Assembly (NCBI GenBank): GCA_037308085.1 | Contig: CP147779.1 | Location: 2,048,001 to 2,112,000, forward strand | Reading direction: 5' to 3' | DNA length: 64,000 nucleotides | DNA from: Promethearchaeati archaeon SRVP18_Atabeyarchaeia-1 | Lineage (GTDB): Archaea; Asgardarchaeota; Atabeyarchaeia; Atabeyarchaeales; Atabeyarchaeaceae | Part shown: piece by piece, positions 54,158-64,000 of the stretch | Layout of the letters: every line of letters begins with the position of its first letter | Numbering within the stretch: position 1 is the stretch's first letter | Position numbers and translations under genes: made by a program | Notes under the pieces: model-generated | Databases searched by the model: none | Seen by the model: the letters and a program-made list of their open reading frames with translations, nothing else | Told to the model about the DNA's origin: nothing

Positions 54158-55963
54158 CTAGTCCGTGGCATGCCTGCAGGGCGCAAGCGGAATCTGGGCG
54201 GATATGGGGAATCTGTAATACTGCTTGTTCCATATGTACGCGAGCCCCGTGGGAAGGTTCGAAAGCCTTGCCATGTCTCTTTGGTCAAAGTGTGGAACGA
54301 GTTCTCTGAGCTTGTCGAAGTCTTCTCCCATTCGATGGATTATCATGGAGTGGCACTGCCCCAGAACGTGCTTCGCCTCAAACCCAGGCAGATCCTGAGA
54401 CGCGAAGAACAGTCCGAATCTGAGTGATCTGCCTTGGCGGGCTATGCGTTCAACCCCCTGAAGGGTAGCCTCATCCTTGAGGATCTTCCACGCCTCGTCG
54501 ATTATCACGACTGTTGGCGGATAAGCCTTCCCAAGGGAGTGCAGACTGTGAATATGATCATAGAGAGCCCAAAGAACATACGAGACTGTGACTTCCTGTG
54601 CGTCTCTCGTCAGGGGAGCAACGTCAACAACCGACACCCGACCGGGTTTAACGAGTTCGTTTATTGGAATGGTGGGCACTTTCGGATCATCGAAAAGATC
54701 CATGAGGAGAAGCTGCTCCAGACCTCTGAGGATGCTTTTGGCAGTCTGGATGTGAATCCCAGCGGAGCTTGTCGGTCCTGGGATCTTGATCTCCTGATCC
54801 TTAGATATCTCAGCCTCCCTGATCAGAATTGATAGAAGCCTAGTTATTTCTCTGAGGTTGTAGCTTCTTCCCTCTTTCTCAAGAATGTATTTGATAAGGT
54901 CTTTGGCGTGGATGAATGAATCGATTCCCATGCCTGAGACCCGGTCCTTCAGTATCTGCTCAAGGTAGCTGTCACCCAGCGCTTCCAGCTCAAGATCAAA
55001 GCTGTTCCACGCCCCGTCCCTGCGTGTGCATTCTCTGCCCTTCAACACGTAGAGCCTGAAGTCCCGCACTCCCGCGGGCCGGATATTGAGACCCTTCCAA
55101 ACTGCGGCTCCGGTGGGTGTTCGCTTGAAATTCGCATCCATGACCTCTTGCTGGCACGGCTGATCGAGGTACAAGAATTCGCTGCCCTTGACGTTGAACT
55201 GTACGACTGCGAGGCCGCACTCGCTAAGCGACTTGTCGAAAGCGGCAATGGTGTTGGATTTTCCTCCCCCGGTTGCGCCCACGATGATGCCGTGGTACCA
55301 CATTGCGTCCATCGGCAAGTCGATTACTACGTAGGGCCTGTAAATTGACTCTGGGTTCGCGTAGAGACCTATCGGAATCGTCAGCGTGCTCTCACGTGGT
55401 TGCTCTACGATTAGGGCTATCTTAATGTCCTCTGCATTCGCCAGGTAGACGGGGCTTTCTCTTTCAGGCGGTCTCAAGGGCCCAACGACCCTTCCCTCTA
55501 GGAGCTGCCCTAAAGATTCAACTTCCAGTATCTCCGAATCCTCTCTCCAAGTTACGTCTCTCTCCCCGCCTTCGCCATAGTAGGAGACCATCGCCATGTC
55601 CTTGGCGCTCTTATATGAGAGACCAGGTTGAATCACGATCCGCTTGATCTTGCCGAGGACAGGGGTCCTCGATCTGTCGATGGCATCCACCCTAACAATC
55701 GTATCAATCTTCAGGTCACCCACAATCCTCCTTTTCGACATAGAAGGGACTATGACTTTAAACACCTCAGTCTCTATTGGCTCTTCAAATCCGCCTGCGA
55801 CGACGCCGATGAATTCTCTTTCGGCAGGCAAGGTCTTGGCGTCCATTTTCTCTTCTCTCGGAGAGGTAGGAGCGGGTCTCAACTTCGAGGCTGAAGCGTG
55901 GTTTTGCGAGCGATTCAACGCAGAGTTTTCATCGGGATCATAATCACTGATCTTCTTGGACAT
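54158..55963 (-). CDS. herA: HerA/FtsK-family ATPase (HAS barrel plus P-loop)
   Basis: N-terminal HAS-like barrel, GATGGGKS, IIDEAW, RIARQGR..GL..ASQ; ATG overlaps the upstream TGA. Confidence 0.88.
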   Translation of the reverse strand: MSKKISDYDPDENSALNRSQNHASASKLRPAPTSPREEKMDAKTLPAEREFIGVVAGGFEEPIETEVFKVIVPSMSKRRIVGDLKIDTIVRVDAIDRSRTPVLGKIKRIVIQPGLSYKSAKDMAMVSYYGEGGERDVTWREDSEILEVESLGQLLEGRVVGPLRPPERESPVYLANAEDIKIALIVEQPRESTLTIPIGLYANPESIYRPYVVIDLPMDAMWYHGIIVGATGGGKSNTIAAFDKSLSECGLAVVQFNVKGSEFLYLDQPCQQEVMDANFKRTPTGAAVWKGLNIRPAGVRDFRLYVLKGRECTRRDGAWNSFDLELEALGDSYLEQILKDRVSGMGIDSFIHAKDLIKYILEKEGRSYNLREITRLLSILIREAEISKDQEIKIPGPTSSAGIHIQTAKSILRGLEQLLLMDLFDDPKVPTIPINELVKPGRVSVVDVAPLTRDAQEVTVSYVLWALYDHIHSLHSLGKAYPPTVVIIDEAWKILKDEATLQGVERIARQGRSLRFGLFFASQDLPGFEAKHVLGQCHSMIIHRMGEDFDKLRELVPHFDQRDMARLSNLPTGLAYIWNKQYYRFPISAQIPLAPCRHATD

Positions 55964-57159
55964 CAAATCTCGCTCCCCACGAAGTACTGAGATGCAAAGT
56001 GACCTAGGCTCAGTCGAGCATCCTCGACTCCCCTGTCTTTTATCCACTCGGACATTAATCGCCTCAGGTGTATAAGCAATGCGGATCGCTCAACTCTAAC
56101 CATTCTGTGGATGCACATCAGAGGATGCGGGACGCCCTCTGCTGCGGACGCCAAGCTCATAGCGTATACCGCCTTTGAGATCAGGTCTTCCCTTATCCCC
56201 CAGCGCTCCCAGCAATAATCAGGGATCTCAACCCTGAACGGTGCGGACCACTTGGTAGGCTTGATGTAAAAAAAGACAAACGATATAGGACTCGAGTAAG
56301 GCGTTGCACCAAATATCCTTGGGGGTCGAAAATGGAAGGCAGCACTCCTCTCGCCAGGCTTCAGCCTGAATGCATATAGCGAGCAGTCAGTGGGGAAGCT
56401 TGCATCGAACTTCTCTTTGGAGTTGCTCCTGAGGTACTCCACGACCACGTTCTGCGAAGGCCTCTTAACGATCCCTATGACCATTGCATCTTTCTCGAGG
56501 AAGACCTGGTAATACTTTTCCTCAAGCTGGGATATCTGCTGGTAGGACGATGACATGTTGTGCTTCGGGTCAGCATCCCACCGTGACTTCGGTCCATACA
56601 GGTTCCCGTCCCGAATAATCATGCCGCCCCGATCGGTGTAGTCGAGAGCCTCCAAGGTTGTTTCGTTCTCAGCGTAGGTCCGGAGCAAACTGATGAAGCT
56701 ACCGATCTCGAAGGGATCGACATTGTCTCTTACTAGAGACTTCAGGTCTTCAACATCTTCACTGACAAAGCCCTCGGAGTCACCGAAAAGCAACTTGGAG
56801 TAGTAGAGGAAGAAGGGGGGATACCTCTCGCATGATACGAGATACTCCGTGGGCGGGCTTCCAGCGCCCGAGAAATATCGTCTTGCCGCTCCTGCCCGAC
56901 CCAAGAGGAGAGTGCCGAACGGGAGCACCCAGAAATTGCTGCCGCCATCAATACTAATCGTGCTTCTCCCCCGCATTATGTGGCTGTCCAGAGCGATCGG
57001 AATGCCCTTAAGAGGATCAGCGGATTCAACGGGTTCAAGTTTGCCTAGCATTATCTGCTGGTTGTACTTGAGGTCAGTGAGTTCGGCGAGCGCTGAGACT
57101 GGAAGAATGCTCGGTAGCCGTTCAAGCTTCTCCCTGATCACCCTAAATGGCAAAGACAT
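55963..57159 (-). CDS. nurA: NurA-family nuclease (divergent)
   Basis: SIDGGS, IIRDGNL, GIVKR, FFY.K....FRVEIP, G.P.PL...H. Confidence 0.8.
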   Translation of the reverse strand: MSLPFRVIREKLERLPSILPVSALAELTDLKYNQQIMLGKLEPVESADPLKGIPIALDSHIMRGRSTISIDGGSNFWVLPFGTLLLGRAGAARRYFSGAGSPPTEYLVSCERYPPFFLYYSKLLFGDSEGFVSEDVEDLKSLVRDNVDPFEIGSFISLLRTYAENETTLEALDYTDRGGMIIRDGNLYGPKSRWDADPKHNMSSSYQQISQLEEKYYQVFLEKDAMVIGIVKRPSQNVVVEYLRSNSKEKFDASFPTDCSLYAFRLKPGERSAAFHFRPPRIFGATPYSSPISFVFFYIKPTKWSAPFRVEIPDYCWERWGIREDLISKAVYAMSLASAAEGVPHPLMCIHRMVRVERSALLIHLRRLMSEWIKDRGVEDARLSLGHFASQYFVGSEI

Positions 57160-57243: not shown

Positions 57244-58257
57244 CTACTCTCTAGCGACCAGAAGTCTGCCCCTAGATGTGTCAAATCTCATCTGGTAACC
57301 GAGTCTTATGAGACGCTGGATCTCAGCCGCAACCATCCTAGAGTCTCTCAGGTACCTTTCCTCAAGGTCAACCACCGGAACCACCGGTGGAAGGTCTCCG
57401 ACGTAGTCGTCAATCCCTCGAAAGCCTGATGGTGCCGTAGCTTTTCCCAAGACCAGCTCAGTCAAGTGATTGCCTAGCGCACTCTCCAGCTTCTCCATGA
57501 CCTCATCTGAAAGCAGCACTGACTCTTCGGCTGTCAGCCTGCCGGCTGAGACACCTATGACTCCTCGTCCCTCCGGGGCCGAGATGCGCATTGTGACAAT
57601 TCTGCCCACCCTGTCGCTTTCCCAGCGGTATCCTGCCCCTTCCAGTGGCGATGAACCAATCTGTGTGACATGGTCGATCCTCTCATAGATCTCGGATTTC
57701 ATAAGATCCGAGCCTTTGAGCTCCACTTCGACGTCTTCCACCGTTGCCCGGACCTTGTAGACTTCGCTACCAGGAAGCGTCTGTAAGTAGTGGTCGCATA
57801 GGCACTTCAAATCCTCACTCCGCGGGACAAACCTTTCGAAGCCGTTTGGAGACGGAAGACACATGTCGAGAACCGCCGAGATCGCTTCCTCTGCAACGTT
57901 TGTGTTTAGAGGTCCCCCCAAAGACGATACTATAATGGCTCCTCTCTGAGGAAGCGCCATCAATCGAAAAGCATAGCCCACGAAACCCTCTTCGACTGCG
58001 GGCTTGCCCCCCTCAAACTCGTGGACAAGCTCTTCAAGACCTGGCTTCTTCTTCTCCTCATACTTCTCAAGGTAGAACACTGCTGTTGCGGCCACGGGAA
58101 AGCGCATTTCGATAAAAGGCGCTCTGAACCCCCGCCTCGGCCTCGGACACCCAAAAGACAGCACGCTCTGCTTGCTCCGCCACCTTGAGAGTATCTTCAC
58201 CGGAGTCAGAGATGTAAACTCCCTATGCCTGCTTGGCAGATATATGCCGAGCTGCAT
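57244..58257 (-). CDS. Uncharacterised alpha/beta protein, first gene of the nurA-herA operon
   Basis: 337-aa ORF with a GAGGCGG RBS, co-oriented with nurA and herA; no recognisable family motif. Confidence 0.7.
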   Translation of the reverse strand: MQLGIYLPSRHREFTSLTPVKILSRWRSKQSVLSFGCPRPRRGFRAPFIEMRFPVAATAVFYLEKYEEKKKPGLEELVHEFEGGKPAVEEGFVGYAFRLMALPQRGAIIVSSLGGPLNTNVAEEAISAVLDMCLPSPNGFERFVPRSEDLKCLCDHYLQTLPGSEVYKVRATVEDVEVELKGSDLMKSEIYERIDHVTQIGSSPLEGAGYRWESDRVGRIVTMRISAPEGRGVIGVSAGRLTAEESVLLSDEVMEKLESALGNHLTELVLGKATAPSGFRGIDDYVGDLPPVVPVVDLEERYLRDSRMVAAEIQRLIRLGYQMRFDTSRGRLLVARE

Positions 58258-58260
58258 GGA

Positions 58261-58400
58261 GGAACCGCCTCTTTCTATCTAATAATCTTGAGTATAACGT
58301 TATGTTTCCTAGAGTAAGCTCATGTCACTTCTCTCATATAAAGGTTTATCATGTATTATCATATTAAACCCTTAAGAATCATCTAAATCGTAATGAATAA
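58261..58400. promoter_or_regulatory. AT-rich divergent promoter region
   Basis: Minus-strand TTTATATG (~58336-58343), plus-strand CTTAAG box (~58371), palindrome ATAACGTTAT and a TTATCAT direct repeat between the boxes. Confidence 0.55.
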
Positions 58401-58616
58401 GCCATCAACACAGCAATGCAGGCAAATCCGCCAACCACAGGGGCGATCCGTCCAAGCATGACTCTGTGGCATCTCTATTGGGACCGAAAAGGTTGATTTC
58501 AGGCGGAGAAAAGCTCAAGCGAGCAATGCTTAAGAGGTTCGCAACACACTGCAAAGTCTCATATTGACGGAGCGCCAAGTGACGCTCACTCACCATAACC
58601 GGGAGGTTGTAATCAT

Positions 58617-59822
58617 ATGGCTCTAGTTATCCCTGGGATTGACGCAATCATTACGATGATTGTGAAGCCACTTATCATGAATCGAGCTAAAGCCTTCGCA
58701 AAGATGATCTACGCAAAACTCAAGGGAAGGGCTGACGAGAATGCACTCGCAGACGAGCTCATCAACGCCATCGAGATGGGACAGGTTGATTCCTTCATAA
58801 TGAAATATGAGAAGTCCATCCCCAAGGAAGTGATCGAGAAGATCCGCGCCCTCGCAAACATGAGGGAACTCTTCAACAAAGCCTCCAGAATAATCAGCGC
58901 ACAAAAATACAGCCAAGATGCCGCGAAAGTCTTCATCGACCTAGCCAGAATACTCGATGATGTAATGGTTGGCATGTCCTTCGAGGAAGCTGGCATAGAG
59001 GACGTTACCGTGCAGGATGCAGAGACAAACGACCAGATTCATGTTACGAGCGAGGATTACATGGTCGCTCTCCTCTTCAGATATGCTGCTGCTGTCTGGA
59101 CGCAAATTGCAGCAATGGCCACCCCCATGGCAAGGGGATGGACCCTTACATACGATGCCAAAATGGAAGTCACCTTAGGTAAGCCACAAGTAAATATGAA
59201 GAGAGCCGCAGCACCCCCAATGGCATCCATCGCAAAAGACGAGAGCGCTGCAGGCAGAGAAATGGGAGGGCCCAGACCTGGATTCCTTGAATTCAGAGCA
59301 GCCTATGAGAACCTGATGCCACTTTACCGGAATGGACTAGCGATACGAGATCAGTACCTGGACTCGGTCTCCTGCTTGAAGACTGCCCTGATCAAGGTGA
59401 AGAGCATAAAGAGAGGGAGACAAGATAAGATGCACAAGCACATGGACCCGAGGCATCTAGAAGGCCTGATTCTAGCATTCAGGGGGGAAGCCCAGTACTG
59501 GCAATACCGCGTTTCAGACGAGCTCGCACAATCAGCCGCCGCCGTGAAGAACTTCTTCGAGGAAGATTCAAAGCAGGTGAAGGAATGGATGAACTTCATG
59601 GACGTCCCGAAAGAAGGCTTCAAAGAGTTCCTCGACGCGCTGACACTTTACAGGAACTTCCCAGAAGGACTGGCTGGCGCGCTCAGGCTGTACAAGGAAG
59701 GAGCCGAAAAATGCGTGGACGGAAAGGACCGAGACATGATATTCAGCAGAATAGGCGACTTGCAGGCAGTCTCCTCTTACAAGCCAGCCGTATTCGTCCC
59801 CGATCCAAGACCAATCTTATGA
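58617..59822 (+). CDS. Helical protein, candidate BRO1-domain (ALIX/BROX-like) protein
   Basis: GGAGG RBS; collinear BRO1-like motifs F.E..I..VT.QDA, S..Y...LLF..AA..QIAA, AQY.Q and KD.D.I..R..DL...A.FV..P (by-eye comparison). Confidence 0.55.
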   Translation: MALVIPGIDAIITMIVKPLIMNRAKAFAKMIYAKLKGRADENALADELINAIEMGQVDSFIMKYEKSIPKEVIEKIRALANMRELFNKASRIISAQKYSQDAAKVFIDLARILDDVMVGMSFEEAGIEDVTVQDAETNDQIHVTSEDYMVALLFRYAAAVWTQIAAMATPMARGWTLTYDAKMEVTLGKPQVNMKRAAAPPMASIAKDESAAGREMGGPRPGFLEFRAAYENLMPLYRNGLAIRDQYLDSVSCLKTALIKVKSIKRGRQDKMHKHMDPRHLEGLILAFRGEAQYWQYRVSDELAQSAAAVKNFFEEDSKQVKEWMNFMDVPKEGFKEFLDALTLYRNFPEGLAGALRLYKEGAEKCVDGKDRDMIFSRIGDLQAVSSYKPAVFVPDPRPIL

Positions 59823-63451: not shown

Positions 63452-64000
63452 TTAGCGAGTCTTCCTGTAGGCCACATAAACCGCGACAAAGAGTAGTGGA
63501 CTCAGGGCCAGCGTCAGCATAAAAGGCAGCTGCCTAGAATATGCGTAGAGGGTTCCCCCCAAGTAAGGCGTCGTAGCCTCAGCCGCATAGACAAATGTCC
63601 CAATTACGCCATAGGTCCTACCCACCCTTCTCCCAGCACTCAGCTCACCTATTGTGCTATATATAAGCGGGAACACTGCCCCGACTGAGCCCAGAAGCAC
63701 AAAACTCACAGGCAGGATTAACGAGTTAGAGTTCGGAACGAGGATCCAATACCCGAGAACAAGTGAAACGATGGGAACGGTCACTAGCGCGAGTTTCCTC
63801 GCTGGAGCGTATTTATCACTGAGTTTTCCGAGCAAGCTCACAATCACAACTGCTGAGAGGTTCGATACTGCATACATTACTTGTACGGAGAAGAAACTGA
63901 ATCCATATTCCTCGCTCAAATATAGAGGAATATAGGACCAACCCAAGTACACGACCCCCATGAAAAGACAGCTTAACGCAACCATCGGCGCAAGCCGCCT
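63452..64000 (-). CDS. MFS transporter, C-terminal part (5' end lies outside the window)
   Basis: GKLSDK motif, G..YG, PYLGG.LY and about 6 TM helices. Confidence 0.85.
   Translation of the reverse strand, partial: RRLAPMVALSCLFMGVVYLGWSYIPLYLSEEYGFSFFSVQVMYAVSNLSAVVIVSLLGKLSDKYAPARKLALVTVPIVSLVLGYWILVPNSNSLILPVSFVLLGSVGAVFPLIYSTIGELSAGRRVGRTYGVIGTFVYAAEATTPYLGGTLYAYSRQLPFMLTLALSPLLFVAVYVAYRKTR

Follow-up and report, generated by a model that had tools for sequence, protein, structure and literature searches.

Locus and gene

[quoted passage not shown] An original prediction, made from the sequence alone, had named this open reading frame (ORF) as a candidate archaeal BRO1-domain protein and had taken the host to be Asgard-like; the ORF is present on the plus strand at 58617-59822 with 401 aa, and the guess about the host was right, the source being Atabeyarchaeia-1. 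The gene, its start signal and the parts of its product are as follows, in window coordinates (pLDDT, predicted local distance difference test).

58617..59822, plus strand: gene for the predicted BRO1-fold protein (401 aa and stop), from the ORF, full-length homologues, the AlphaFold2 model and structural matches
58602-58607, plus strand: Shine-Dalgarno sequence GGAGGT, nine bases 5' of the ATG, read from the sequence
58617..58730, plus strand: aa 1-38, a hydrophobic N-terminal segment (1-21) and then a basic amphipathic stretch (22-38); candidate membrane anchor
58998..59048, plus strand: aa 128-144, a beta-hairpin formed by strands 131-133 and 140-142, in which D134 is nearly invariant, from DSSP and conservation
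59049..59153, plus strand: aa 145-179, conserved helix (146-168) and TPxxxGWxLxY loop, from conservation
59154..59270, plus strand: aa 180-218, variable Pro/Ala-rich disordered insertion (pLDDT <50)
59283..59507, plus strand: aa 223-297, the best-conserved and best-modelled helices 223-262 and 278-297, including HLEGLxxxFRGEAQYW (pLDDT 90-97)
59721..59819, plus strand: aa 369-401, the GKDxDxIxxRI helix, then an extended tail that closes the protein with VxVPDPxPI, from conservation and the model

The annotated start is supported by the Shine-Dalgarno sequence and is kept across the homologues in the alignment. The four motifs on which the candidate had been singled out are all in place (ALANMRE at residues 78-84, MSFEEAG...TQIAA at 120-166, FRGEAQYWQ at 288-296 and KDRDMIF...VFVPDP at 370-397). 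Since motifs 2-4 fall on blocks that are invariant in the 15 closer homologues and the homologues are full-length, the gene is real and under constraint.

Predicted structure

The AlphaFold2 model was built on an alignment of 15 sequences. It has a mean pLDDT of 78.5 and a predicted template-modelling (TM) score, pTM, of 0.77, with block means >90 for most of residues 221-400; it is disordered at residues 1-8 and 180-218, and pLDDT is low for residues 1-20. The description of the protein as mostly helical was borne out: apart from a single beta-hairpin at 131-133/140-142 (DSSP), where a hairpin had been expected at about 128-144, the model consists of helices, and it closes with a last helix (370-382) and an extended chain (383-401).

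When the model was compared with 48,161 PDB representatives by an exhaustive structural aligner, with no Foldseek prefilter, the first five ranks were all BRO1 domains: ALIX (2xs1; Z-score 17.1, 250 residues, 3.3 Å; and 2oew, Z 16.4), HD-PTP (3rau, Z 16.1), yeast Bro1 (1zb1, Z 15.0) and BROX (3um3, Z 14.9). These alignments span the model from residue 1, 2 or 7 to 401, and the sixth rank is a tetratricopeptide repeat (TPR) domain at Z 9.0. Re-alignment of the top 1000 Foldseek chains likewise placed BRO1 first, in 16 of the 16 top entries (Z 14.5-16.8), and next the TPR structure of LGN (Z 9.1). Foldseek itself gave the Bro1 domain of HD-PTP (3RAU) a probability of 0.99, but with an E-value of 0.06 and a TM score of 0.36. 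In the ESM Atlas the nearest clusters are one of Promethearchaeota that was automatically named 'putative BRO1 domain-containing protein' and PTPN23, in which the Pfam BRO1 family PF03097 is found on 100% of members; a third, with a TM of 0.73 by target, is an N-terminal BRO1 fragment from a plant and covers residues 1-285 of the model.

Overall, the BRO1 alignments reach Z 14.5-17.1 over 238-251 residues at 3.3-3.6 Å, and TPR, LGN and 14-3-3 structures only Z 7.6-9.1, with 120-185 residues covered. Helical models can attain a Z of about 14 by arrangement alone. The BRO1 fold is nonetheless well supported, because the Z values exceed this helical background, because BRO1 entries lead non-BRO1 entries by at least 5.4 Z and because the non-TPR N terminus is matched along with the hairpin and the tail. 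A generic TPR structure, which would have spoken against the original prediction, is not what the model resembles (Z 14.5-17.1 for BRO1 entries over residues 2-401 vs 9.0-9.1 for the best non-BRO1 entries), no TPR Pfam family matches the protein or its homologues at E<=1, and on the strength of this model the protein very probably has the BRO1 fold over its whole length.

Comparison with known BRO1 proteins

The top match is the Bro1 domain of human ALIX/PDCD6IP (2OEW, 2OEV, 2XS1 and 3C3O), which aligns at Z 16.4-17.1 over 250-251 residues at 3.3-3.5 Å and pairs residues 2-401 of the model with ALIX 8-345. The two are of similar size and share an order of parts: a hairpin, then long helices, then an extended C-terminal strand. 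Identity in the structural alignment is only 12-14%, with no detectable sequence similarity, and the Atabeyarchaeia-1 protein differs further from ALIX in having no V domain or proline-rich region and in carrying an N-terminal hydrophobic/basic helix and a 40-residue insertion (180-218). The CHMP4 pocket residues of ALIX are F199, I212 and L216.

Human BROX (3R9M, 3UM3, 3ULY and 3ZXP) aligns at Z 14.8-14.9 over 241-244 residues with 8-9% identity and, like the Atabeyarchaeia-1 protein, stands alone. The original prediction had likened the two in size, and the lengths agree well (376-389 aa for the BROX target chains, 401 aa here). BROX is reportedly a lipid-anchored BRO1 protein, and its membrane tether is a C-terminal farnesylation. 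The anchor of BROX is thus a C-terminal prenyl group, whereas the putative anchor of the Atabeyarchaeia-1 protein is N-terminal and proteinaceous, so that the parallel would be a functional one. For BROX, binding of CHMP4B and CHMP5 has been shown; the likeness of the Atabeyarchaeia-1 protein to it is one of predicted fold.

The Bro1 domains of yeast Bro1p (1ZB1) and human HD-PTP/PTPN23 (3RAU, 5CRU and 5MK2) match at Z 14.7-16.8 over 238-245 residues at 3.3-3.5 Å. In both, Bro1 is the N-terminal module of a large multidomain protein, whereas the Atabeyarchaeia-1 protein has a single domain, and PF03097 recognises both while missing the Atabeyarchaeia-1 family.

Family, conservation and distribution

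The protein had been called an orphan, which is inexact. Searched exhaustively with phmmer, 1.84 billion representative proteins yielded no more than 21 clusters at E<=0.001, down to about 20% identity, and the family profile matches 14 of 400 genomes of the phylum. A word-indexed search retrieved 14 full-length homologues with 39-81% identity, one of them from Candidatus Atabeyarchaeum deiterrae; all 14 are annotated 'hypothetical protein', and public records call every family member hypothetical. A permissive word-indexed search with a merged profile brought back only this family and the relatives described below from another family of genomes, f28.

The BRO1-fold family is small and patchily distributed. 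Its carriers are each of the three genomes in the family to which the window belongs (Atabeyarchaeia), all four genomes of one genus of family f12 (Hermodarchaeota), one complete 3.6-Mb genome that is probably from Freyarchaeia, two of the three genomes of family f26 and, by a weak match, family f28, where the proteins are 511-520 aa long. To judge by their alignments, the 511-aa f28 proteins are true distant relatives of the 401-aa family (hhalign 96%, E 4.5e-9 against the single sequence; 97.9%, E 3.5e-13 over residues 69-296 between profiles). They carry an extra C-terminal part: in the f28 relatives (L014:1345-2877, plus strand, and L013; genomes G308 and G306) the extension begins after about residue 345 and holds a series of EDAVEV repeats, which are acidic, and, near 445-510, a short stretch predicted as beta/alpha (alignment-free model, pLDDT 43.8).

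Conservation over 20 diverse members peaks in the hairpin and in the three helices after it. In the first of these helices and the following loop, conservation is 85% or more at Y148, A151, L153, T162, P170, G174 and L177; L233, Y237, Y247, L281, E291 and W295 show little or no variation, and the block 223-297 that holds them also aligns with the 511-aa f28 relatives. The insertion at 180-218 has the lowest conservation and varies in length within the family. Among the 15 closer homologues the invariant residues are S121, F122, E124, A125, G126, S145, E146, Y148, A151-L153, T162 and Q163 in the block of motif 2, R289 and E291-W295 in that of motif 3, and G369, D371, R378, D396, P397 and P399 in that of motif 4, which gives the patterns SF.EAG, SE.Y..ALL....A.V.TQ, R.EAQYW, GKD......R and DP.P. 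R378 is invariant in all 25 members aligned.

The N-terminal segment

Residues 1-21 are hydrophobic (Kyte-Doolittle 19-residue mean of 1.94 for residues 3-21); after them comes a stretch that is basic and amphipathic, RAKAFAKMIYAKLKGR. This hydrophobic-then-basic pattern recurs in most of 20 family members, and we know of no eukaryotic BRO1 domain with such a segment. A cleaved signal peptide is unlikely because residues 1-38 have neither a positively charged n-region nor a signal-peptidase motif. The composition of the segment suggests that the helix may be a membrane anchor, added in this lineage. An N-out/C-in anchor, or a helix lying in the plane of the membrane, would keep the BRO1 fold cytoplasmic, since the positive charges come after the hydrophobic stretch.

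The ESCRT genes of Atabeyarchaeia-1

The genome has ESCRT-III, as an ESCRT adaptor would call for: two adjacent Snf7-family genes lie at about 532 kb, beside RNA-polymerase and ribosomal-protein genes, and Vps4, Vps25, EAP30 (Vps22/36) and Vps28 cluster at 323-329 kb. With its ESCRT-I/II components the host thus encodes a complete, if minimal, ESCRT system. Both loci are >1.5 Mb from the BRO1-fold gene, which sits at 2,106.6 kb and so lies outside any ESCRT operon, just as the original prediction had it. Both ESCRT-III paralogues are present in 10 of the 10 carrier genomes examined. Each of the two Atabeyarchaeia-1 proteins ends in a C-terminal amphipathic stretch, in principle a ligand for a BRO1 domain; these stretches prove nothing, because such tails also serve binding to the MIT domain of Vps4.

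A third EAP30 (Vps22/36-like) match, which lies outside the window at C1:2343353-2343730 on the minus strand and contains an in-frame TAG, may reflect a pseudogene, a gene that is split, or a problem of sequencing.

Proposed role

Common ancestry of the protein with the eukaryotic Bro1/ALIX/HD-PTP/BROX domain is probable. As an explanation of the whole we lean, if only slightly, towards a highly diverged stand-alone Asgard BRO1-fold protein that is held at the membrane and docks B-type ESCRT-III. The N-terminal hydrophobic and basic helix would tether the protein at the cytoplasmic face of the membrane, and the concave face formed by the three best-conserved helices (146-168, 223-262 and 278-297) would bind the C-terminal helix of B-type (Snf7/CHMP4-like) ESCRT-III. 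Such binding could nucleate or stabilise ESCRT-III polymers in parallel to the ESCRT-I/II route, as ALIX, Bro1 and the lipid-anchored BROX do. The docking step is put forward tentatively, because genomic linkage is absent.

Several results weigh against this interpretation. The structure is a predicted one, built on an alignment that is shallow at 15 sequences, and the match to the PF03097 hidden Markov model (HMM) that the original prediction had looked for was negative at every level tried. Neither the protein nor any of 20 homologues, scanned singly, has a match at E<=1, the six-frame translation of the genome yields nothing at E<=10, and the PF03097 gathering score of 35.1 bits is reached in none of 400 genomes of the phylum. 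Family, merged and block profiles, run with hmmsearch against 177,635 PDB sequences (E<=10), found no ALIX, BROX, Bro1 or HD-PTP chain; the best matches in these searches (BiP, baculovirus P35 and the MEK5 PB1 domain) are noise, at E about 0.1-1. A language-model search for look-alikes returned nothing (score 0.75). For the motif-by-motif likeness to ALIX that had originally been claimed, an excess over chance could not be shown, the HMM searches being without a BRO1 chain both over the whole length and block by block. The register S..Y......AA..[ST]QIAA and the match KD.D.I[FY] are presumably shared with human ALIX.

The sole hint of BRO1 at the sequence level consists of sub-threshold PF03097 matches in two of seven f28 proteins. 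The phylum's plain TPR proteins give equal or better sub-threshold matches, and we did not count the f28 proteins as a sequence bridge to BRO1, the best such matches falling on TPR/MIT-like proteins and on an EutA homologue. Aligned with the family by hhalign, three of these sub-threshold proteins reach 0.8%, 0.1% and 29%, which indicates no convincing relation.

The genomic context also tells against a role with ESCRT-III. In none of the lineages whose neighbourhoods were examined does an ESCRT gene stand beside the family member, and in the two carriers with both kinds of gene on one contig (G116 and G307) the BRO1-fold gene is again not next to the ESCRT genes. The arrangement HerA-NurA-unknown / BRO1-fold gene / SnoaL-MetRS-Macro is shared only by two Atabeyarchaeia genomes and is not conserved outside Atabeyarchaeia; other lineages have, in its vicinity, either a methyltransferase with PadR or a GH5 cellulase with UvrB/UvrA/UvrC. 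The gene looks monocistronic, with no conserved operon partner. Co-occurrence with ESCRT-III was given no weight as support, ESCRT-III being nearly phylum-wide and the family present in 14 of 400 genomes.

Alternative explanations

The alternative that survives best is that the protein is a true BRO1-fold relative with another ligand, for example a membrane protein, a part of the ubiquitin system or a lineage-specific partner that offers a helical or extended peptide. It would explain why the gene is never found beside ESCRT genes and has neighbours that vary by lineage, and why the family is rare when ESCRT-III is in every Asgard genome examined. We nevertheless regard it as rather unlikely: the most conserved part of the family is the helices after the hairpin, where the CHMP4 site of ALIX presumably also lies, and to our knowledge all the characterised BRO1 domains tested for it (ALIX, HD-PTP, BROX and yeast Bro1) bind CHMP4/Snf7.

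It could also be that the protein is a TPR-like helical solenoid that merely resembles BRO1, by convergence or through a bias of AlphaFold2 given a shallow alignment, with no homology involved. The lack of significant similarity in any HMM test would fit this, as would the Foldseek E-values of only 0.05-0.3 at a TM of about 0.35, the empty search by language-model features, the Z of about 14 within reach of helical arrangement alone and the TPR-like nature of the BRO1 core itself, which goes with the sub-threshold PF03097 matches of TPR proteins. Yet the Z values of 15-17 stand above the helical background, each BRO1 entry leads every TPR protein by at least 5.4 Z (14.5 vs 9.1), the match extends to the N-terminal part, which is not TPR, as well as to the hairpin and the C-terminal tail, and three libraries and two aligners agree on BRO1, so that this explanation seems improbable. 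That the ORF is spurious or a pseudogene is effectively refuted by its full-length, indel-poor conservation to 20% identity across several Asgard lineages, together with the correctly spaced Shine-Dalgarno sequence and the confident fold (no RNA run is listed for the stretch, which is not evidence either way).

Neighbouring genes and further observations

Upstream of the BRO1-fold gene, three genes run in the opposite direction.

54158-56047, minus strand: HerA-like ATPase, divergent from the BRO1-fold gene
55963-57159, minus strand: NurA nuclease, with an 85-nt overlap with HerA
57244-58257, minus strand: 337-aa protein with no Pfam family, co-directional with HerA and NurA

Atabeyarchaeia-2 keeps all three genes and their order, its version of the unknown protein being 339 aa long, and the third gene may encode a lineage-specific partner of NurA-HerA. 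A functional link between the BRO1-fold gene and this divergent operon is not supported beyond one family, as the synteny is confined to two Atabeyarchaeia genomes and the neighbours differ elsewhere. In one distant carrier (L019/L020; a contig of GCA_975848465.1 and a Logan contig) the family member lies directly upstream of co-directional uvrB-uvrA-uvrC. The two different DNA-repair neighbourhoods, NurA-HerA and uvrB-uvrA-uvrC, may be a coincidence, the neighbours of the other carriers being unrelated.

The divergent intergenic region (58258-58616, 359 nt) has an AT-rich part with TATA-like runs at about 58280-58400, followed by some 200 nt of ordinary composition up to the Shine-Dalgarno sequence, and it is possible that the BRO1-fold gene has a long 5' leader. 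A 63-aa ORF on the minus strand within the region (58405-58596) is probably spurious. Downstream, Atabeyarchaeia-2 has a gene for an Arf/Ras-family small GTPase (L016:14414-14956) about 5 kb from its BRO1-fold gene, beyond the Macro and MFS genes; an MFS gene at the edge of our window (63452-64000) suggests that the order is the same here, in which case the place of the GTPase gene would fall shortly past the right end of the window.

As a separate observation from the sequence searches, the phylum's top sub-threshold PF03097 score, 26.9 bits, belongs to TPR/MIT-like proteins of 407-408 aa from Heimdallarchaeum (L029:1453-2679, minus strand; L031; L039:604-1827, plus strand), of which one complete genome has two copies 5 kb apart. 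The 407-aa proteins are unrelated to the 401-aa family (hhalign 0.8%), and their size fits that of a 410-aa archaeal cluster of the ESM Atlas labelled 'putative BRO1 domain-containing protein'. They may represent a second, independent BRO1-like family.

Implications

Bro1/ALIX provides eukaryotes with a second way, independent of ESCRT-I/II, to recruit the membrane-cutting ESCRT-III; it serves in cytokinesis, in sorting at multivesicular bodies, in the repair of membranes and in the budding of viruses.

In their survey of ESCRT systems, Makarova et al. (2024) could identify no Bro1/Alix orthologues in Asgard archaea, and Eme et al. (2023; PMC10307638) made a brief claim of Asgard Bro1 homologues. 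The 'Bro1' rows in the supplement of the latter study carry the accession PF18097, which is Vta1_C, a model of 38 positions, and the proteins listed, which come from Heimdallarchaeaceae, Njordarchaeales and Thorarchaeia, are some 75-150 aa long. Because the accession is that of Vta1_C and the proteins are too short, these are not BRO1 domains. A structure-based survey of Asgard proteins mentions BRO1, ALIX or BROX neither in its main text nor in 674,000 characters of supplements to its preprint, and PTPN23 is likewise absent from those supplements. The openly licensed literature that we consulted on Asgard archaea and Bro1 or ALIX describes no full-length Asgard BRO1 domain. Judged by its model, the Atabeyarchaeia-1 protein would present a known fold that is new in lying beyond sequence recognition, in being archaeal and in having an N-terminal helix and an insertion of its own.

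Complete Asgard genomes in which a minimal, two-subunit ESCRT-III occurs together with a BRO1 fold of full length would place the origin of the adaptor earlier than eukaryogenesis. They would also supply a simple reconstitution system for adaptor-driven nucleation of ESCRT-III, with one adaptor, two ESCRT-III subunits and Vps4, and the possible N-terminal anchor would be an archaeal answer to the problem of membrane targeting that BROX solves by farnesylation. That the Bro1/ALIX branch predates eukaryotes, with a membrane-anchored stand-alone adaptor nucleating B-type ESCRT-III without ESCRT-I/II and the eukaryotic BRO1 domains descending from an archaeal superfamily, is a far-reaching proposal that we consider doubtful at present. 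If true, a pre-eukaryotic adaptor branch would exist in Atabeyarchaeia, Hermodarchaeota and probably Freyarchaeia, and BRO1 would not be a eukaryotic invention.

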